A DNA stretch of 64,000 nucleotides, from contig JBBRBU010000014.1 of the NCBI GenBank assembly GCA_038205505.1, forward strand, positions 8,067-72,066, given 5' to 3'. The position numbers were made by a program, and so were the translations under genes. The stretch is from Lysobacterales bacterium (GTDB lineage: Bacteria; Pseudomonadota; Gammaproteobacteria; Xanthomonadales; Rhodanobacteraceae). The notes under the pieces were generated by a model. The model had not been told where the DNA came from. It worked only from the letters and a program-made list of their open reading frames with translations, and ran no database searches. Shown piece by piece: positions 4,701-21,762 of the stretch; positions within the stretch are counted from its first letter, which is position 1; every line of letters begins with the position of its first letter.

Positions 4701-4822
4701 CGAGGAGTTCTGCATAGTCTGGCTTCCCTCGTGAATCCGGATCTGGCGAGCGACCCATGACTGTTCATCGCAACGACTACCCGATTCCGCGTCCGAACAG
4801 AGTCGACTGGATCGTCGGCCGC

Positions 4823-5494
4823 ATGAAGGTTCTCATCGTCGAAGACGAGCGCGACATCGCGGCGAATATCTGGGACTTCCTCGAACGTCGCGGCCATGTT
4901 GTCGATCATGTGGTCGATGGCAAGCAAGGGCTTGCCCGCGCCATGAACGGAAGCTTCGACATCATCATCCTCGACCTCGGTTTGCCGCGTCTCGACGGAC
5001 TGGAGCTATGCCGGCGCCTGCGAGATGCGGGCAATGGCGTTCCTGTGCTGATGTTGACCGCGCGCGATACGCTGGAGGATTGTCTGAGCGGATTCGAGCA
5101 TGGAGCGGACGACTATCTGGTCAAGCCGTTCGCCTTGCGCGAGCTCGAAGCCCGCATCCGCGTCCTCCACCGCAAGGGTTCGCCGCCAGAAGATGCGTTG
5201 CTCAAGCTCGGAGAGTTGAGTTATTCGCCAACCTCGATGTTGGCGCAGCGTGCCGGACAATCGATTCCGCTGACGGTTGCCCAGGGTCGCATCCTGAGCC
5301 TGCTGATCCGCGAATCGCCGAACGTGATCCGTCGTGAGAGCTTGCGGGTGTCGGTCTGGGGAGAGGAGGGCGGCACCATGGCGGCCCTGCATACGCATGT
5401 TTGCACGCTGCGCGCATTGATCGATCGTCCGTTTTCCAAAGTCATGCTGCAGACCGTGCACGGCATCGACTATCGGCTGGTGGATCCGGAGTGA
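4823..5494 (+). CDS. OmpR/PhoB-family response regulator
   Basis: MKVLIVEDE...IIILDLGLP...MLTARD...DYLVKPF receiver domain plus winged-helix C-terminus. The start may be 4757. Confidence 0.9.
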   Translation: MKVLIVEDERDIAANIWDFLERRGHVVDHVVDGKQGLARAMNGSFDIIILDLGLPRLDGLELCRRLRDAGNGVPVLMLTARDTLEDCLSGFEHGADDYLVKPFALRELEARIRVLHRKGSPPEDALLKLGELSYSPTSMLAQRAGQSIPLTVAQGRILSLLIRESPNVIRRESLRVSVWGEEGGTMAALHTHVCTLRALIDRPFSKVMLQTVHGIDYRLVDPE

Positions 5495-6717
5495 CACAGC
5501 GATCAGTCTCGCTACGCTGGCGCGTGACCCTGGCATTTGGTCTGCTCGGCCTGGTCCTCAGCGGTCTCTTCGCCGGTGCCACGACCTTCATCACCGAACA
5601 CTACGAAGAGCTACTCGTGGACCGCATGCTTGAAAGCTTCTCTGCCGATCTCTTCGCACGTCATTCGAGTACTTCAACTCGCACATTGGCTCTGCCGACA
5701 TCACACACCTTGCAGGGTTACCTGCAGCATGCCGATGGGAGCGGAGCAGTCCCCGAAGCCTATGCCTCCTTGCCACTCGGCATGCATGAGGTCGACCTCG
5801 GTGAAGACCAGGACTTCCGCGTCGGGGTTTTCAATCTGGATGGTGACCGTCTGTACCTCGCCATGAATCTCGCCGACGTCGAACCGCTCGAGACCTACCT
5901 CGAACAAATCCTTGCCGCCATCGTCGTGTTTGGCACGCTGATCGCTTCATGGCTCGGCTGGCTCTTCGCGGGTCGCACGATCGCCCCGGTACGTCGACTT
6001 GCCGAAGCGGTCGAAGCGCTGCCGTCGTACGCGCAGCCAACGCAACTCGCCTTGCACGTGGCCAATGACGAGCTCGGCCGACTGGCCAAGGCCATCGATA
6101 GCTACCAACAGCGACTCATGCAGGCCGATGAGCGCGAGCGAGCATTTTTTGCTGATGCGAGTCACGAGTTGCGCACGCCACTGGCGGTCATCCGCGGAAC
6201 GGCCGAGCTGTTGCTCGACGATGACCAGCTCGAGAATCAGCCACGCTCCCGTCTCGAGCGCCTTGATCGTGGCGTGCAGACGCTCGCCGACCTTCTGGAA
6301 GCGCTGCTCTTGCTGGCCCGTGGCACGAAGAGTCCGCCCGAGTCCGTCGATGTTGTCAGCTGGCTCTCCGAGACCCTGCCGGAGATCAATGCCGCCGGCA
6401 GGCTGGAAGTCCACCGCATGCCGGACACGGGGCCGCTGCTCCTGCGCCCACGCGAGGCCAGCCTTGTCGTTCGTGGCATCGTGCGCCGACTTGATCGCAG
6501 CCTGGAGTTGGCGACGATCCGGGTTGAAGTTCACAGCAAAGAATTGATTCTCGGCATACCCCGCGATTCGACCGTGACGGGCGATTCCGGCCATGCCCAG
6601 GAATCCGGCGACCGCAGACTTGGTGTCACCCTGATCGGCCGCCTGGCTGCGCAGATGGATTGGGTCATTGATGAAAACCAGTCAGCAGCCGGACGCATCT
6701 CGATCCGGCTGTCTTGA
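5491..6717 (+). CDS. Sensor histidine kinase (2 TM, HAMP, HisKA) with an apparently degenerate ATPase domain
   Basis: GTGA overlap with the regulator stop. H-box FFADASHELRTPL is present; N/D/F/G boxes are not recognisable. Confidence 0.8.
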   Translation: MTQRSVSLRWRVTLAFGLLGLVLSGLFAGATTFITEHYEELLVDRMLESFSADLFARHSSTSTRTLALPTSHTLQGYLQHADGSGAVPEAYASLPLGMHEVDLGEDQDFRVGVFNLDGDRLYLAMNLADVEPLETYLEQILAAIVVFGTLIASWLGWLFAGRTIAPVRRLAEAVEALPSYAQPTQLALHVANDELGRLAKAIDSYQQRLMQADERERAFFADASHELRTPLAVIRGTAELLLDDDQLENQPRSRLERLDRGVQTLADLLEALLLLARGTKSPPESVDVVSWLSETLPEINAAGRLEVHRMPDTGPLLLRPREASLVVRGIVRRLDRSLELATIRVEVHSKELILGIPRDSTVTGDSGHAQESGDRRLGVTLIGRLAAQMDWVIDENQSAAGRISIRLS

Positions 6718-7129
6718 ACCGCCGCAAACGAGCCAATGTCCGTCGCATTCGAATTTGCGGCAAAAATATAGATGATCATGAAGCCATGGTCCGTGATCCG
6801 TTCAAGGCTGCTCACGTCAGCGTTCTCGTTGGGCGCTCGCCATGGGATTCCGACGATCGCCGCTAGACGCGCTGCCCTTGCTCGAAAGTGAAGACTGGAT
6901 CCAACCGCTGCGCAACGTGCATTCCGGCCATTGAAAGCCATGCTGGAAGCGCATCATGTTCGGCGTCACAGGAACCACGTCGGCAGCGATGACTTATTGA
7001 ATGGGTGAATTGTTCAGCGCACCATTCGGTGCGTCTATTGAGCGTCTCCGGAGTGACATTCAAGCTGTCGTCTCGCAGCTTCCGCCGGTCTCGGAATCGA
7101 ATTCGCATTCGCATGCAGGACCCGTCCAG

Positions 7130-8329
7130 TCATCGACGACGGACGGAGGTCGCTACCTTGGCCGTGTCCAGCTCGAAATCCACATCGATCTTGTTGCAGA
7201 TACTCGGCTGATCGAGCCAGTTGGTCGAAATGGGCTGATTACCCGAACCATAGGGGCCGTAGACTTCAGGATCGGTGCAACTGAACAGGCCGAAGACGAT
7301 CGGTCCGCGGCTGGCGCAGGCCAAATGCATGATGCCGCAATCCGCCGCGATGAACAGTCGGGTCGCCGCGATGACGGCGGCCATACGCCGTGGATGACTC
7401 GAAAAGTAGCCCGGTACCGAGGCACGAAGACCCGATATGCCATGCGCCGGAAGAAGTTCGACGAATCGCGCCTGCGGATACTTGATGCGAAGGCAATCGA
7501 GCATTCTCAACCACCAATTATCGTCGAAGCACTTGCCTCCGGTTGCGTGGGCAAAGATGGCGATTGTGGGTTGATCTCTCAGGTTTGCCGAGCGGCGAAA
7601 AAGTTCATTCAATTTGGCCTGACCCCAGGAACGCTCACTGGAGGTCAATCCCAGATCGAGTGATGGCATTGCCTCGCTGCCGGTGAAATCCCCACGCGTT
7701 GCTATCGCCCTGCGCAGGAGAACAATTGGCAACTGAGCCATGTGACGAACACGAAGCGGAGCGGGAAGGGCATAGGTCAATCGCTGCGAGGGTTTCCTGC
7801 CATTGAATCCGATTCGATGGGTCGCCCGGCATCGATTGACCAGAAGGCGGCTTGAATAAGAGCTGATATCCGGGTCGATAGCCAGATCGTAGCGTTGGTG
7901 CCGCAGGGTGCGAAGCACGTTGATGGTTCGCCACGGGTGGCGAAATGCGTGGCGCGGCAAAGAGTAGACGGTGCCGACGTTCGGAAAGTGATCGAACAAT
8001 TCCCGACTCTGATCACCGCCAACGACAAGATCGACCTGGCTGCCTGGAAAGCGCGCCTGCAGTTCCACTATGAGGGGCGTCAACAACAGCAGATTGCCAA
8101 GGCGATGATTCGCCCGGCAGATCAATACCCGGTATAGCCCTTGCTGTGGAATTGGAAGGTCTGCAGGGGAATAGTGCGTGCGTCCCTGTATCCAATGACG
8201 GGCGAAGAAACCAATCGTTCGGCGCCGATAGTCTTGAAGGACGGAACCCCACGACGGTCGAGCAAGTTTTGTCTTGACCGCAGTCTTTTCAGTGCGGCGT
8301 CGCATGACAATTCCGGGAAGCAACATCAT
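7130..8329 (-). CDS. Glycosyltransferase family 9 (heptosyltransferase-like)
   Basis: RLGNLLLLTPLI, YDLAIDP and FIAADCGIMHLA motifs typical of GT9. ATGA overlap with the upstream PepSY gene. Confidence 0.8.
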   Translation of the reverse strand: MMLLPGIVMRRRTEKTAVKTKLARPSWGSVLQDYRRRTIGFFARHWIQGRTHYSPADLPIPQQGLYRVLICRANHRLGNLLLLTPLIVELQARFPGSQVDLVVGGDQSRELFDHFPNVGTVYSLPRHAFRHPWRTINVLRTLRHQRYDLAIDPDISSYSSRLLVNRCRATHRIGFNGRKPSQRLTYALPAPLRVRHMAQLPIVLLRRAIATRGDFTGSEAMPSLDLGLTSSERSWGQAKLNELFRRSANLRDQPTIAIFAHATGGKCFDDNWWLRMLDCLRIKYPQARFVELLPAHGISGLRASVPGYFSSHPRRMAAVIAATRLFIAADCGIMHLACASRGPIVFGLFSCTDPEVYGPYGSGNQPISTNWLDQPSICNKIDVDFELDTAKVATSVRRR

Positions 8330-8682
8330 CGGTCCCGTTGCCTGTCGTCATCCTGATCCGACTTGTCATCCCGACTTTTGGTTTCGAACCCGGTTGCGAC
8401 CAATTCGCCGCTGAGCGCATCGATCTGAACTTCATGGACTTCGTTCGAGCCGTGGGGCCGGAGCTGGATCGACCAGATCAGCCGGCCTTGCTCTTTTTCC
8501 AGGTCAGCGCGCTCGAAAGCGCTGTCAGGAAATTGCCCCGAGGCGACCGATCGCGCAACATCCTTCGAGATTCTGGTTTGGCTGGTACCGAATCGGGACT
8601 GATGCGCTTGCGCAGCGGGAAGCACGGGAACGGTTGCAAACAAAGCCAATGAAACGACTGCGGCGGTGATGCAATTTTGCAT
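8326..8682 (-). CDS. Secreted PepSY-domain protein
   Basis: Signal peptide followed by ADLEKEQGRLIWSIQL...EVQIDALSGELV. SD aggag precedes the ATG at 8682. Confidence 0.8.
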   Translation of the reverse strand: MQNCITAAVVSLALFATVPVLPAAQAHQSRFGTSQTRISKDVARSVASGQFPDSAFERADLEKEQGRLIWSIQLRPHGSNEVHEVQIDALSGELVATGFETKSRDDKSDQDDDRQRDR

Positions 8683-8835: not shown

Positions 8836-9333
8836 GTGCGAAAACCGCTCACCAACCGTGGATTTCCCTCCGAATGCACAGAGCGTCTGTTGCCCGGGGC
8901 CTGGATTCCCACCCCTCGGGTTGAGGAACATCCCGCATTGGTGCATCCTGCCCGGGTGTCGCTTAGAAACCTCCAGCGCCGAATCATCGCGCGGGTCAAC
9001 TGTCCCCTGGGACAGCTGGCAAGCTTGATCCTGTGCCTGTCGTTGGCGGGCGCTGGAATGCCGACAGCGTCGGTGCATGCGCACGCGAACGGCGATCAAC
9101 AGCATGACCATGCCGTTCATGTGAGCGTTGCCGACCATTCCGATCATGCAACGGGAGGCGATGCCGAAGACATTCTGCATCTGCATGATGTTGGCCTTTC
9201 ATTGGCAACGCTGCCTTCGTTTCCCGAGTCCGTGATCGATGCGTTGGCGCCAGTTTCCCCGGTTTTCGGCGGCGTGATTCCTGCGCCACCCGATGCATAC
9301 CGTTCGCGCCTTCATCGACCTCCCATCGCCTGA
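8836..9333 (+). CDS. CzcI/CopL-like His-rich exported leader protein ending RPPIA (start uncertain, 8836-8956)
   Basis: Hydrophobic signal-like segment, His-rich middle (HAHANGDQQHDHAVH), Pro-rich tail and C-terminal RPPIA. Lies directly upstream of czcC. Confidence 0.7.
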   Translation: MRKPLTNRGFPSECTERLLPGAWIPTPRVEEHPALVHPARVSLRNLQRRIIARVNCPLGQLASLILCLSLAGAGMPTASVHAHANGDQQHDHAVHVSVADHSDHATGGDAEDILHLHDVGLSLATLPSFPESVIDALAPVSPVFGGVIPAPPDAYRSRLHRPPIA

Positions 9334-9390
9334 CAAACGCGGCCGCTGTCCTGCGGCCTGACCAGCTTTGTCTTTCGATAACCCGGAGGT
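9318..9390 (+). promoter_or_regulatory. Predicted mRNA hairpin sequestering the czcC Shine-Dalgarno
   Basis: acctcc (9318-9323, inside the R-P-P codons) pairs with ggaggt (9385-9390). Inner stems: atcg/cgat, gacaaa/tttgtc, ggccgc/gcggcc. Confidence 0.6.
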
Positions 9391-9395
9391 TTTCC

Positions 9396-10642
9396 GTGAA
9401 TTTGCGTTTCTTGTTGATCCTGGCCTTGGCCGGGATCGGCGCTGTCGTCCCGAAAGGACACGCCGCCGAACTCTTGCGCCTTGAAGAGGCGGTTGCCCGC
9501 GCTCTGGCCAAAAATCCAACGCTTGCTGCTGAAGATTCCTTGCTGCAAGCCACTCGAATGCGCGCCGAACGTGGGGCATTGTCGCCGCCCTATGTAATCG
9601 GCGCTGAAGTGGAGAATGTCGCAGGTAGCGGCGCGCTGAGTGGTGTCAGCGGCGCAGAAACGACCCTGCGCATTGGTCGAGTCATCGAACTGGGAGGCAA
9701 GCGCACTGCCCGCCTGGCCCTCGGCGACGCGGAGGTCCGACAACGGCAAATCCTTGCCGAATCCGCTCGAATTGAACTTGCCAGCCGCACCACGCTCCGC
9801 TTCATCGAGGTGCTCGCCGATCAGCAACGCCTGGAGTACGCAAACGAGCGTGTAGAACAAGCCGGGCTCACCCGGAACGAAATTGCGGCGTGGGTAAAGG
9901 CCGCGCGAAACCCTGAATCGGACCTCTTCGCCGCGGAAATAGTCGTCGCGGAGGCGGAGCTGGATCGCGAGCATGCCGAGCACGAGTTGGCGAGCGCGCG
10001 GAGTACATTGGCAGCCAGTTGGGGTGCATTCGCGCCGGACTTCCAGGCGGTCGCCGGGGACCTGAAATCACTACCCGCTATCGATTCGTTCGAGAAGCTG
10101 GCGGAGCGCCTGCCGATGAGCGCAGAGCAACGAGCCTCGCTTCTGCAGGCCGAAACCATTTCCGCCGAACGCAGAGTCGCGGTTGCGAGCGCCAAGCCGG
10201 ATATTTCACTCAGCCTTGGCGTGCGTCGATCGGAAGCTCTTGATGATCAGGCACTCGTTTTGTCGCTGTCATTGCCCTTGGGCAGCAGGTCGCGAGCGGC
10301 GTACTCGGTGTCCGAGGCCGACGCGCGACTAGCAGCACTGGAGGCGCAACGCGATGCTCGCCACTTCGAGCTCCATCAAGCGCTGTTCGAGAAATATCAG
10401 GAGCTCAATCACGCTCGATTTGAAACCGAATCCCTGACTGCGCGGCTTGTACCCAAGGCGGAACAAGCCCTCGATTTCACTCGGCGCGGATTCAACGCCG
10501 GCAGATTCTCCTTCTATTCGCTCGCCCAGGCGCAAAAGACCTTGTTCGACCTGCGCGGCCGAGAAGTCGAAGCTGCCGCCCGCTATCACACCCTGCTGGT
10601 CGAGGTCGAACGCCTCACCGCTGTCGCCACGGAAACCACGCC

Positions 10643-18377: not shown

Positions 18378-20134
18378 GACACCACCACCTGGCGCATCAT
18401 CCCGGCTTCCATGTGGTACAGCAGATGGCAGTGATAGGCCCAACGTCCGACGGCATCTGCGCTGACCCGATAGCTGATGCGTTGCGCAGGCTGCACCATG
18501 ACCGTGTGCTTTCGAACCAGGAAATCTCCATCAGGAGTTTCCAGTTCGCTCCACATTCCGTGCAGATGGACTGGATGCGGCATCATCGTGTCATTCGAAA
18601 GCACAACGCGAAGACATTCACCCAATCGAAAGTGAATGGGTTTGGCGTCGCTGAACGTCGTGCCGTCCATCGACCACATGTAGCGTTCCATGTTGCCGGT
18701 CAGATGCAGCTCTATCTCGCGACCAGGTTCGCGTGGATCGATGGATCCGCCGATCGTATGCAGATCGGCATACGTGAGTACCTTGCGACCGTTGTTGCGC
18801 AGACCGATGCCGGGATCGTCGAGATTGGTTCGGGGCGTGTCGACGCGCATGTCGACACCGGGTCCGTACTCGGTTCGTGCATGGCGGACTGCCGCGGTTC
18901 CCGCCATGTCGCCGTGGTTCGACCCGTGCTGCATTCCGACCATGCCGTCGCTACCGTGCTGCATGCCGGCACCCATGGCCATGGCGCCCATCATGTCGGT
19001 CATGCTCAACCACTGCGGTGGATCGACAGCAGGCACATCGGCCTGCATGCCGGCCCGCGGAGCGAGCGTGCCGCGCACGAATCCGGTGCGATCGATCGAC
19101 TGGGCAAACACCGTGTAGGCTTGTTCATCGCTCGGCTCTACGATCACGTCATAGGTCTCCGCAACGGCGATGCGGAACTCGTCCACGCTGACCGGCTCGA
19201 CATCCTGGCCGTCGGCCGCGACCACGGTCATTTTCAGGCCCGGAATACGGACGTCGAAAATGCTCATCGCCGAGCCATTGATGAAGCGCAGGCGCACTTT
19301 CTCGCCACGCTTGAACAGCCCGGTCCAGTTGTCACCTGCGCTGGCGCCATTCATCAGGTAGGTATAGGTATGCGCGGTGACATCGCCGAGATCGGCTGGG
19401 CTCATGCGCATCTGGTTCCACATCTTGCGTTTTGCCAGGGCCTGACGAAACCCCATTTTCAATGCATCGTTGGCGAAATCGACCGCGGTCGGCTCATTGA
19501 AGTTGTAGTAGTCGCCCATTTTCTTCAGATTGGCGAACAATACTTCCGGATCTTCGTCGGTCCAGTCCGACAGCAGCACGACGTGATCCTGCTGGGTCGG
19601 AAAGCGCTCGCCGTTTTTTGGCGAGATCACGATCGGGCCGTACAGGCCGGTCTGTTCCTGGAAGCGCGAGTGGCTGTGATACCAGTAGGTCCCGCTCTGA
19701 TTGACAGCGAACTGGTACTCGAACGTCTCGCCTGGAGCGATGCCGTCGAAGCTCAGGCCCGGCACGCCGTCCATGCCGGTAGGCAACAGGATTCCGTGCC
19801 AGTGGATCGAGGTCGGTACGCGCAATCGATTGGTCACGCGCAAGGTGACTGTATCGCCCTCGCGCCAGTGAAGTGTCGGCGCGGGCACCGATCCGTTGAC
19901 CGTGGTTGCAGAACTCCGGGCTCCGGTGATGCCAGACGCGGTTTCGCCGATAGTCAGGTCAAATTGTGTGCCGGACAAGGTGTTGGCCTTGCCGGACGGA
20001 TCGCGCGCCCAGGCCATTGGATGCCGAAGCCCGAGGGTGGCGATCGCGCCCCCAGCGAGAAGGCCTTGCAGGAATCGTCGTCGGGATGCCGTCATCGGCA
20101 GGACGACAGGGAAATCAGAAAAACGGGAAGTCAT
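18374..20134 (-). CDS. copA: Copper resistance multicopper oxidase CopA
   Basis: Tat motif SRRRFLQG and Cu ligands HWHG, WYHSH, HPVHLH, HCHLLYH. Confidence 0.95.
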   Translation of the reverse strand: MTSRFSDFPVVLPMTASRRRFLQGLLAGGAIATLGLRHPMAWARDPSGKANTLSGTQFDLTIGETASGITGARSSATTVNGSVPAPTLHWREGDTVTLRVTNRLRVPTSIHWHGILLPTGMDGVPGLSFDGIAPGETFEYQFAVNQSGTYWYHSHSRFQEQTGLYGPIVISPKNGERFPTQQDHVVLLSDWTDEDPEVLFANLKKMGDYYNFNEPTAVDFANDALKMGFRQALAKRKMWNQMRMSPADLGDVTAHTYTYLMNGASAGDNWTGLFKRGEKVRLRFINGSAMSIFDVRIPGLKMTVVAADGQDVEPVSVDEFRIAVAETYDVIVEPSDEQAYTVFAQSIDRTGFVRGTLAPRAGMQADVPAVDPPQWLSMTDMMGAMAMGAGMQHGSDGMVGMQHGSNHGDMAGTAAVRHARTEYGPGVDMRVDTPRTNLDDPGIGLRNNGRKVLTYADLHTIGGSIDPREPGREIELHLTGNMERYMWSMDGTTFSDAKPIHFRLGECLRVVLSNDTMMPHPVHLHGMWSELETPDGDFLVRKHTVMVQPAQRISYRVSADAVGRWAYHCHLLYHMEAGMMRQVVVS

Positions 20135-20257
20135 GGTTATCACCACTCAGTGTCGAAGGATCGACTGCACGTCGCGTGCAGGCAATGACGGCATCTCGAG
20201 CCTCGCGAGAACGCGAGTCGAGTGCAATCGGTGGTGCCCGAAAGCACCAGCAGACAC

Positions 20258-20686
20258 TCAAGCGATAGGAGGGCGACTCAGATGCGGCAGGATCGGCGCT
20301 GGAAGTCCGGCTGCGACCGGACGATCCCTCGATTCACCCATTTCAGCAACGCCGAACCAGGCAAATGACGGCAAGGTTGCCGCCGCATGAACGCAGGCAC
20401 AGTTGCAGTGGGCCGACTTGCAGCAGTCGGGCGCGAGATCTTGAGAAGACGTCGCAGACACGTCCTTCGCCTGCGCGAGAGCTTCGCTCGCTTGGGACTC
20501 ATCTAATGATGGTGGTTCGTGGCATGCAGGCTTTGCCGGGGTATGCGATTCAACGTTTAACGCGCGGGAGTGCATATCAGCGGGATTGTGGGCGCCGGCC
20601 GAAAAGGCGGCCATGGCGAGCGGTGACCCATTCAGGATCACCCCAAGCGCCAACACTACCCGTAGCAGAATTGATCTGAACATCAT
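20258..20686 (-). CDS. copL: CopL-family leader/metal-binding regulatory protein ending RPPIA
   Basis: Signal-like N-terminus, Cys/His cluster DCCKSAHCNCACVH and Pro-rich end PAPILPHLSRPPIA. Sits immediately upstream of copA. Confidence 0.85.
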   Translation of the reverse strand: MMFRSILLRVVLALGVILNGSPLAMAAFSAGAHNPADMHSRALNVESHTPAKPACHEPPSLDESQASEALAQAKDVSATSSQDLAPDCCKSAHCNCACVHAAATLPSFAWFGVAEMGESRDRPVAAGLPAPILPHLSRPPIA

Positions 20687-21012
20687 GTTTCTACAATACA
20701 CCGGTCAGATGGGGATTCAATCGATGGCAGCAGATCCAACATGCCCGCTCGGCGCATCGTTTTCATTCGATCAATGATTGACCCTGGCGCCAGGCATAGG
20801 TTCATTCCCGTCGACTTGACCTGAACACACAATTTCACGCGGGTCGGGTATGCAGGAACGCTGGCCAGGATGCCGGGAACCGTGGTCGGACGCTGCGCGG
20901 CAGAACAAGGGCTGCCGGCTCGTCGGCACTCGCTCGTCCCGGACTGGCTCGCAACCTTGACCGAGCTGCCCTGCGATCAAGCCCGTCGCCAGCTTCAGTT
21001 ATTATTCCCGCC

Positions 21013-21762
21013 ATGAGCAAATCCAACACCACGCATTTCGGTTTTCGCGATGTCGCCGAGAGCGACAAGGCGCGCCTTGTCGGCGAGGTCTTCACCTCGG
21101 TTGCGCGCAACTACGACATCATGAACGACCTCATGTCGTTCGGCGTGCACCGCTTGTGGAAGCGACACTTCGTCGCCACCAGCGGCGTGCGTGCCGGCGA
21201 TCACGTGCTCGATCTGGCCGGTGGAACCGGCGATATTGCGGCACTGTTGCTGCCGCGGGTCGGCAAGGCGGGTCGCATCGTCATCGCCGACATCAATGGC
21301 GACATGCTGCGCGTCGGCCGAGATCGAATGATCGATCGTGGCCTGCTGCGCGGTCTCGATTATTCCCAGGTCGATGCCGAAGCCCTGCCGTTTCCGGATC
21401 AGAGTTTCGATTGCGTGACGATGGCCTTCGGACTGCGCAACGTGACGCGCAAGGAGAACGCGCTGGCCGAGATCCATCGCGTGCTCAAGGTTGGCGGACG
21501 GGCATTGATCCTGGAATTTTCCTCCGTGCGCGAGCCCCTGCTCAAGCCGCTCTACGACTTCCACTCGTTTTCGGTCCTGCCGCGCATCGGCAAGCTGATT
21601 GCCGGCGACGAATCCAGCTATCGCTATCTCGCCGAATCAATCCGCAAGCATCCGGATCAGGCGACCTTGAAGTCGATGATGGAGCAAGCCGGCCTGGCCC
21701 GTGTCGATGTGCGCAATCTCTCCGCAGGGATCGTTGCGATCCATCGCGGGTATCGGGTCTAG
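21013..21762 (+). CDS. ubiE: Ubiquinone/menaquinone biosynthesis C-methyltransferase UbiE
   Basis: [36 protein letters not shown] and [10 protein letters not shown] motifs. Confidence 0.96.

Follow-up and report, generated by a model that had tools for sequence, protein, structure and literature searches.

How could a small open reading frame (ORF) whose last codons spell RPPIA control the copper-resistance genes behind it? The question is raised by copL, which lies directly upstream of copA and copB, on the same strand, in a 64,000-nucleotide (nt) stretch of DNA from a Lysobacterales bacterium (assembly GCA_038205505.1, contig JBBRBU010000014.1, positions 8,067 to 72,066). We refer to this whole stretch as the window and use its numbering unless another locus is named. 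A reading of the sequence alone had proposed that the end of copL pairs with the copA initiation region, and that copL and a second leader, upstream of czcCBA, are parallel arrest-peptide switches. Our analysis indicates that copL probably encodes a leader peptide of the CutF-like class that is exported, senses metal and acts in cis, controlling access to the Shine–Dalgarno (SD) sequence of copA. A CutF-type arrest is already a published idea for CopL, and Ozturk et al. (2023) placed CopL among the CutF-like proteins (sequence similarity network cluster 29), as possibly isofunctional with CutF (PMC9973294).

The probable copL leader peptide and its predicted pairing with copA

The copL ORF encodes 142 residues (20686–20258, minus strand; ATG at 20686, stop codon UGA at 20260–20258) and was identified from the ORF list and by its NCBIfam match. 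Residues 6–142 align with positions 1–129 of the profile NF033807 (CopL_fam) at 77.3 bits, the curated cut-off being 40 bits; a search of the bacterium's own genome with CopL_fam gave a result for copL identical to that of the window scan. CopL homologs share the start methionine. Hydropathy and the family alignment delineate an N-terminal hydrophobic segment resembling a signal peptide (residues 1–26, ...SPLAMA/A; 20609–20686, minus strand). Its Kyte–Doolittle maximum in a 15-residue window is 2.24, at residues 6–20, followed by AMA-A, and the hydrophobic character is kept across the CopL family alignment.

As the sequence-only reading had stated, the protein includes the Cys cluster DCCKSAHCNCACVH and ends in HLSRPPIA (...LPHLSRPPIA before the stop codon). 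The family alignment delimits a putative copper-binding site, CCKSAHCNCACVH, at residues 88–100 (20387–20425, minus strand). In 16 CopL homologs, the residues D87, C88, C89, K90, C94, C96, C98, H100, L136, R138, P139 and P140 never vary, and I141 hardly varies. This invariance marks the codons of R138-P-P-I-A142 and the stop (20258–20275, minus strand) as a putative arrest motif. The distance between the two elements is also fixed, with 40±1 residues across the family from the last Cys of CxCxC to the Arg of RPP. In size and tail, copL agrees with the description of CutF-like proteins by Ozturk et al. (2023), its PP being residues 139–140 of 142.

To follow these features across genomes, CopL loci were collected from one genome per species, which gave 80 loci, 45 of them unique. 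Almost all belong to the Lysobacterales (Dokdonella, Pseudoxanthomonas, Luteimonas, Thermomonas, Lysobacter, Stenotrophomonas and Xanthomonas), and in nearly all of the ~80 the Cys-type leader stands 5′ of copA. R-P-P-I is unchanged throughout the ~80 loci, and the tail R-P-P-I-x-stop is present in 45 of the 45 unique ones, while its RPP codons vary synonymously (CGA/CGC, CCU/CCA, CCC/CCG/CCU). Constant amino acids encoded by varying codons indicate selection on the peptide, and not only on the RNA. The codon choice is nevertheless strongly biased. At the first Pro position, 35 of the 45 loci have CCU and none has CCG or CCC, and at the Arg position 42 have CGA, although CCU makes up 10% of the Pro codons and CGA 14% of the Arg codons in the genome of the window. 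The favoured codons yield CGACCUCC, an anti-SD sequence, and the bias therefore points to an RNA constraint as well. In 10 of the 45 loci, RPP is encoded by CGA-CCA-CCG, which lacks CCUCC, and RPPIG is still kept.

The gene that the leader would regulate, copA, encodes a multicopper oxidase exported by twin-arginine translocation (Tat) (20134–18374, minus strand; ATG 20134–20132; 917.8 bits against TIGR01480, copper_res_A). Its start is conserved at the nucleotide level in the closest relatives and lies beyond a spacer of 123 nt from copL. The copB gene is at 18443–17241 on the minus strand (Pfam PF05275 match).

We folded the RNA from 20290 to 20120 (minus strand), which gave a minimum free energy (MFE) of −64.8 kcal/mol (z = −2.75); 2 of 200 shuffled sequences folded equally well. 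In the MFE structure, a closing helix, P1, surrounds three hairpins. The 5′ strand of P1 (20253–20267) consists of UAUCGCUU (20267–20260) and AGUGUC (20258–20253), and thus runs from the I-A codons through the stop codon to the fifth nt after it, with pair probabilities of 0.55–0.95. The 3′ strand, GACACU GAGUGGUG (20141–20154; MFE and pair probabilities), overlaps the copA SD sequence, GGUGAU (20144–20139), which is located 4 nt 5′ of the ATG and aligns with an invariant GGAG in the family. Hairpin 1, UGGUGCU-UUCG-GGCACCA, is directly 3′ of the copL stop codon (20249–20232); hairpin 2 (20229–20187) contains CUCGCG/CGCGAG and occurs in relatives too, with variable sequence; hairpin 3 (20186–20160) contains CUGCACG/CGUGCAG. 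The fold reproduces the AGUGUC/GACACU closing helix and the three hairpin stems that had been named from the sequence.

The sequence-only reading had also paired the I-A codons with the bases just before the copA ATG. Pairing with the SD region is indeed predicted, but the register it gave, 20267–20262 with 20143–20138, is a minor one (p ~0.2); the dominant register is shifted by 3 nt and joins 20267–20260 to 20141–20148 (p 0.55–0.70). Both registers are predicted to sequester the SD sequence, and the U and G of the copA AUG to pair with 20274–20275, in the Ser-Arg codons of copL. By prediction only, the spacer therefore has an mRNA structure that shields the SD sequence, as in CutF-like leaders.

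In the CopL loci, copA begins 92–162 nt after the copL stop codon. Opening the SD sequence is predicted to cost 6.6 kcal/mol across the family when the RNA is intact, 3.9 kcal/mol when the copL 3′ end is masked, that is, held single-stranded as it would be under a ribosome, and 5.2 kcal/mol when the 5′ strand is shuffled. An RNAalifold analysis of 40 spacers aligned with MAFFT recovered hairpin 1 only, with compensatory changes in five of its six pairs. The alignment of all spacers misses the long-range helix because the helix shifts relative to the SD sequence, and for this reason we used a subset alignment and an alignment-free, anchored test. In the latter, a heptamer made up of the last two bases of the stop codon and the five bases after it paired with the pre-SD region of its own locus better than with those of non-cognate loci (permutation p < 0.0005). 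The compensatory classes are AAGCGUC/GACGCUU, AAGUGUC/GACACUU, AAACGUC/GACGUUU, AGGGAA/UUCCCU and GAGUGUC/GACACU. In a subset of 22 sequences, picked because it displayed the pattern, RNAalifold found the long-range helix unaided; its 5-bp core is 98% paired, and both sides have changed in three of the five pairs. When the core and hairpin 1 were scored together in these 22 sequences, none of 500 shuffles reached the observed values.

Two further measures were rejected as discriminators for their poor separation: the length of the longest contiguous helix (cognate 6.98, non-cognate 6.10, shuffled 5.95) and the duplex energy over 30 nt (cognate −16.3 versus non-cognate −13.6). The most conserved RNA element of the spacer, in the window and in loci L005–L084, is hairpin 1, usually GGCGCC-N3-5-GGCGCC.

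Some observations concern individual copL genes. No SD sequence precedes the copL ATG of the window (20687–20722, minus strand), and a weak promoter-like element, TTGAAT-16 nt-TATTGT, which the consensus scan did not call, ends 6 nt 5′ of it. With the SD sequence absent and this element so close, the mRNA from which copL is translated might be leaderless or nearly so. A metagenome homolog (P0014) reads RPPSG and then continues for ~50 residues instead of stopping. This probably reflects a sequencing error, a frameshift or, as a rare event, a lost stop codon. In a Dokdonella sp. metagenome-assembled genome (L070, 1501–1713), a CopL-like ORF ends in MRPPIV without copA downstream; a 207-residue ORF with a signal-like start follows it in place of copA.

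A His-rich leader upstream of czcCBA

The second leader of the window is encoded on the plus strand (8941–9333; 130 residues from an inferred GTG at 8941). It is His-rich and ends in ...RLHRPPIA, which bears out the earlier observation that the two leaders share their last five residues. Downstream, on the same strand, are czcC (9396), czcB and czcA. The czcA product matches the CusA/CzcA family at 1567 bits and carries a DFG..DGA..VEN motif; Nies is said to have described this motif in 2003 as a mark of divalent-cation pumps.

Here the tail codons themselves form the anti-SD strand. RPPIA and the stop are encoded by CGA-CCU-CCC-AUC-GCC-UGA (9316–9333, plus strand), which includes GACCUCC, and the R-P-P codons (9317–9323) are predicted to pair with the czcC SD sequence GGAGGUU (9391–9385) at p 0.70–1.00. 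The GTG start of czcC (9396–9398, so that SD and start together span 9385–9398) pairs with 9313–9315 at p 0.5–0.7. The fold of this leader has z = −2.88.

A word-index protein search seeded by ORF 8941–9333 returned two proteins only, and an exhaustive search was needed to assemble 41 representative clusters of the His-type leader. Across this family H46, H48, H57, H82, R126, P127, P128 and I129 are invariant and no Cys is conserved, in line with the contrast between Cys and His ligands that the sequence had suggested. R-P-P-I is invariant in 33 His-type leaders despite synonymous codon variation, and 43±1 residues separate the last HxH from the Arg of RPP. A cluster look-up gave no name for these leaders, and they had no NCBIfam or Pfam match.

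We then scanned 300 genomes of the order for His-type loci; 16 had a match, and 12 loci had a clear leader. A czcC homolog follows 62–76 nt downstream in 12 of 12. The CCUCC of the R-P-P codons is predicted to pair with the GGAGG of czcC in all 13 His-type loci analysed, and masking the leader end lowers the cost of SD opening in each of the 13, from a mean of 12.8 to 5.1 kcal/mol. The wobble base of the second Pro codon covaries with the base 5′ of the czcC SD sequence (C:G, G:U, G:C). The comparison of cognate with non-cognate duplexes was not significant for the His type (p = 0.17), because both strands are conserved.

The two leaders had been called otherwise dissimilar, and this is essentially right. 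BLASTP aligns only their last 44 residues (41% identity, E = 0.028, via ATLPSF..PAP..RPPIA), and a profile–profile comparison of the CopL and His-type families covers only the last 25 columns, with a probability of 5.9%, so that common ancestry cannot be claimed. What they have in common is an architecture: an N-terminal hydrophobic, export-like segment, a cluster of metal ligands, an RPPI-x-stop tail, and a fixed spacing between ligands and RPP. The 3′-terminal codons of each also supply the 5′ strand of a predicted helix that buries the SD sequence of the next gene. The proposal of two parallel switches in one locus is thus supported as regards the shared architecture, but one locus understates the matter, as the genome contains four RPPI-x-stop leaders. 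It is conceivable, and we advance it tentatively, that the tail is a portable, dual-coded module, in which ~12 nt encode both an arrest peptide and an anti-SD sequence (CGA-CCU-CC), carried by two leader bodies without detectable homology, with ligand chemistry setting the metal specificity. The Cys body, with a ruler of 40 residues, may then serve a copper oxidase, and the His-only body, with a ruler of 43, a Zn/Co/Cd pump of the resistance–nodulation–division type. That Cys or His sets inducer specificity is suggested solely by the gene that follows each leader type.

Among CutF-like genes, the commonest neighbours are outer-membrane efflux genes of the CzcC/CusC type, and His-only clusters have been reported only next to HupE/UreJ genes (PMC9973294). 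If our reading is true, the pairing of a His-type switch with czcCBA would be new. The family itself is unannotated and represents a modest extension of a known class of leaders. CzcI of Cupriavidus metallidurans is likewise a small exported ORF directly upstream of czcC and has been grouped with the CutF-like proteins, but is reported to lack a C-terminal proline motif (PMC9973294); by that description it is set apart from the His-type leaders, with their invariant RPPI-x tail and no Cys. In the literature covered, which did not include Voloudakis 2005 and de Freitas 2019, we found no description of a covarying, SD-sequestering helix formed by terminal codons, of the dual coding of CCUCC, or of a family of His-type RPPI leaders upstream of czcCBA.

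Where the czc leader begins is less sure. Its frame is open from 8836, but homologs and the hydrophobic segment suggest GTG 8941, which has GAGGAA 12 nt upstream. A two-component system of the heavy-metal type (response regulator and histidine kinase; 4757–6717, plus strand) is encoded 2.2 kb upstream of the leader, and the czc operon may therefore be under both transcriptional and leader-based control.

A possible arrest switch and its alternatives

In the resting state, the last copL codons, the stop codon and the 5 nt after it would pair with the copA SD region and hinder initiation of copA, with the three hairpins between the P1 strands bringing both strands close. Upon induction, periplasmic copper would bind the Cys cluster of the nascent chain during co-translational export, 40 residues behind the peptidyl-transferase centre, and the copper-bound state would cause the ribosome to pause at the R-P-P-I-x-stop tail. 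The paused ribosome would occupy the 5′ strand of P1 and leave the copA SD sequence free, allowing copA (and copB) to be translated. The czc leader is built alike, and a ribosome paused on it would free the czcC SD sequence from the anti-SD strand CGA-CCU-CC of the R-P-P codons, presumably in response to Zn, Co, Cd or another divalent cation. We infer the arrest, its metal dependence, the sensing site and the metal specificity.

The closest precedent is CutF of Rhodobacter capsulatus. In the cutFOG operon, translation of cutF is needed, in cis; CutF function requires the signal peptide, the Cu motif and the PPP tail; and the cutO SD sequence is hidden in a stem-loop (PMC9973294; bioRxiv 10.1101/2025.02.05.636593). 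Copper-caused stalling in CutF overrides elongation factor P, as shown in a 2025 preprint (bioRxiv 10.1101/2025.02.05.636593). Like copL as we read it, cutF encodes a small exported leader directly 5′ of a Tat-exported multicopper oxidase. The leader carries a Cys motif and, two residues ahead of its stop, a C-terminal proline motif, and an mRNA structure shields the oxidase SD sequence. We also count its cis-only action and copper-induced expression among the likenesses to CopL; Xanthomonas copL acts only in cis, according to the passages of PMC9973294 that cite Voloudakis 2005. The two differ in that CutF has CxxxC and ends in GPPPRL, whereas CopL has CCx4CxCxC and ends in RPPI[GA], with no detected sequence similarity, and in that cutF relies on a single stem-loop, in contrast to the closing helix around three hairpins in the ~120-nt copL spacer. 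CopL of Xanthomonas and Stenotrophomonas (NF033807) shares with the window protein its hidden Markov model family, its position before copAB and the invariant C-terminus. Their identity to window CopL is only 36%, however, and their RPP is encoded by CGA-CCA-CCG, without the CCUCC anti-SD sequence; there the helix uses the stop codon and GCGUC.

A second relative in kind is CruR of Bordetella pertussis (BP2923, DUF2946), an upstream ORF that encodes an export signal, a Cys motif and, near the stop, a conserved R-x-P-P tail (PMC9426467). For DUF2946/CruR, 45±1-2 residues have been reported between CXXC and RAPP (PMC9426467), and the fixed rulers of the CopL and His-type leaders match this spacing. 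CruR differs in that its signal peptide is dispensable and its motif is RAPP, as opposed to RPPI in CopL (PMC9426467). Membership of our leaders in DUF2946 was considered and dropped: Pfam PF11162 gave no match at E ≤ 10 for copL, the czc leader and the two other leaders of the genome, and the motifs of copL are CxCxC and RPP, 40 residues apart. The RAPP-like arrest class (SecM/ApdA/ApdP/RQH; PMC10987492) was rejected as well, since in the tail S-R-P-P-I-A neither SRPP nor RPPI fits the consensus.

Several points weigh against an arrest switch of this kind. RPPI lies outside the tested RAPP-like arrest consensus, (R/Q/H)(A/G/D)(P/G/S)(P/G) (PMC10987492). A spacing of 40–43 residues would put the ligand cluster near the tunnel exit or the translocon at the time of arrest, and the cluster may not yet be in the periplasm. 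CruR works in the opposite direction: copper relieves its arrest and Rho terminates transcription, so that copper represses an uptake transporter (PMC9426467). In about one third of the CopL loci the post-stop/pre-SD helix is missing from the common register, another register being used instead, and phylogeny links the loci that were compared. In the window copL, masking the 5′ strand did not lower the cost of SD opening (6.0 versus 5.95 kcal/mol), since a small hairpin forms locally instead, and thermodynamic predictions are approximate for GC-rich RNA.

Three other explanations fit the conserved features less well than the CutF-type model. Transcription attenuation as in CruR would have pausing at RPPIA control Rho-dependent or intrinsic termination in the copL–copA spacer, with copper altering read-through and not SD access. 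CruR, whose similar upstream ORF has a C-terminal RAPP, does act through Rho (PMC9426467), the spacer is long (92–162 nt), and directly 3′ of a third CopL-family ORF of the genome there is a hairpin that resembles a terminator and has a short U tract. We regard attenuation as unlikely, given that the scan of 20050–21050 for promoters and terminators found nothing and hence no terminator-like site, that the spacer is highly structured and GC-rich, a poor loading site for Rho, that the czc spacer is just 62 nt, and that SD pairing is the conserved feature. A pure RNA switch or plain translational coupling would dispense with arrest and nascent-chain metal sensing altogether: RPPI would be kept only for its anti-SD codons, any ribosome at the end of copL would open the helix, and copper control would be entirely transcriptional. 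The strong preference for CCUCC in the R-P-P codons over the usual Pro codons of the genome speaks for it, transient opening by every terminating ribosome is unavoidable, and the czc operon has a two-component system encoded 5′ of it. Yet RPPIG persists in the 10 loci without CCUCC, third codon positions vary without any change of amino acid, and the conserved Cys/His clusters and the 40/43-residue ruler have no role in such a model, which makes it quite improbable.

Finally, CopL could be a mature protein of the periplasm or membrane that binds copper and acts in trans, as a regulator or chaperone, the RNA pairing being incidental; we consider this very unlikely. The NCBIfam name is 'metal-binding regulatory protein', some papers term copL a transcriptional activator (PMC10312155), and the protein combines a Cys cluster with a putative export signal. 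Against this reading stand the lack of a DNA-binding domain and of a Pfam match, the inactivity of copL in trans as related in the part of PMC9973294 that cites Voloudakis 2005, and the covariation of the SD-pairing helix; the invariant last five residues, the fixed distance to the stop and the ruler to the ligand cluster are properties of a nascent-chain sensor. The entry 'CopL family metal-binding regulatory protein' thus probably denotes a leader peptide and not a trans-acting regulator, and its annotation should be corrected.

Lysobacterales include Xanthomonas, Stenotrophomonas and relatives of Xylella. If the CutF-type model is true, their copper and zinc/cobalt/cadmium resistance operons would carry a sensor within the nascent chain, reporting periplasmic metal straight to the ribosome without a dedicated regulator protein. 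The leader pair in one genome is a natural experiment, with the same tail and RNA logic combined with different ligand clusters and target operons. It allows one to ask whether ligand chemistry alone sets inducer specificity, and the 40/43-residue ruler and the covarying helix supply precise mutations.

Other RPPI leaders and neighbouring genes

In the genome of the window, only four credible ORFs of at least 60 residues end in RPPI-x-stop. Besides copL and the czc leader, these are a second copL, on another contig, and a third ORF of the CopL family. The second copL (locus L004, on contig C66; 8548–8985, minus strand) ends in NRPPIS and stands 5′ of a second copA and copB; this set also covers 6621–8447 on the minus strand. 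Its spacer is predicted to form the same closing helix and three hairpins, with z = −2.86.

The third CopL-family ORF (L004 9387–9881, plus strand; 65.8 bits) has the Cys motif CNKFVCAIAC and ends in YRPPIA. The terminator-like hairpin directly 3′ of it is GGGCACCG-uuuuc-CGGUGCC, followed by GCCUUUUG. This ORF may be an attenuator variant of the same leader. After ~460 nt, a DUF411 gene and a gene for a heavy-metal P-type ATPase follow.

In the window, a cytochrome c gene, a SnoaL-like gene and a DUF305/CopM-like gene lie 3′ of copLAB on the minus strand.

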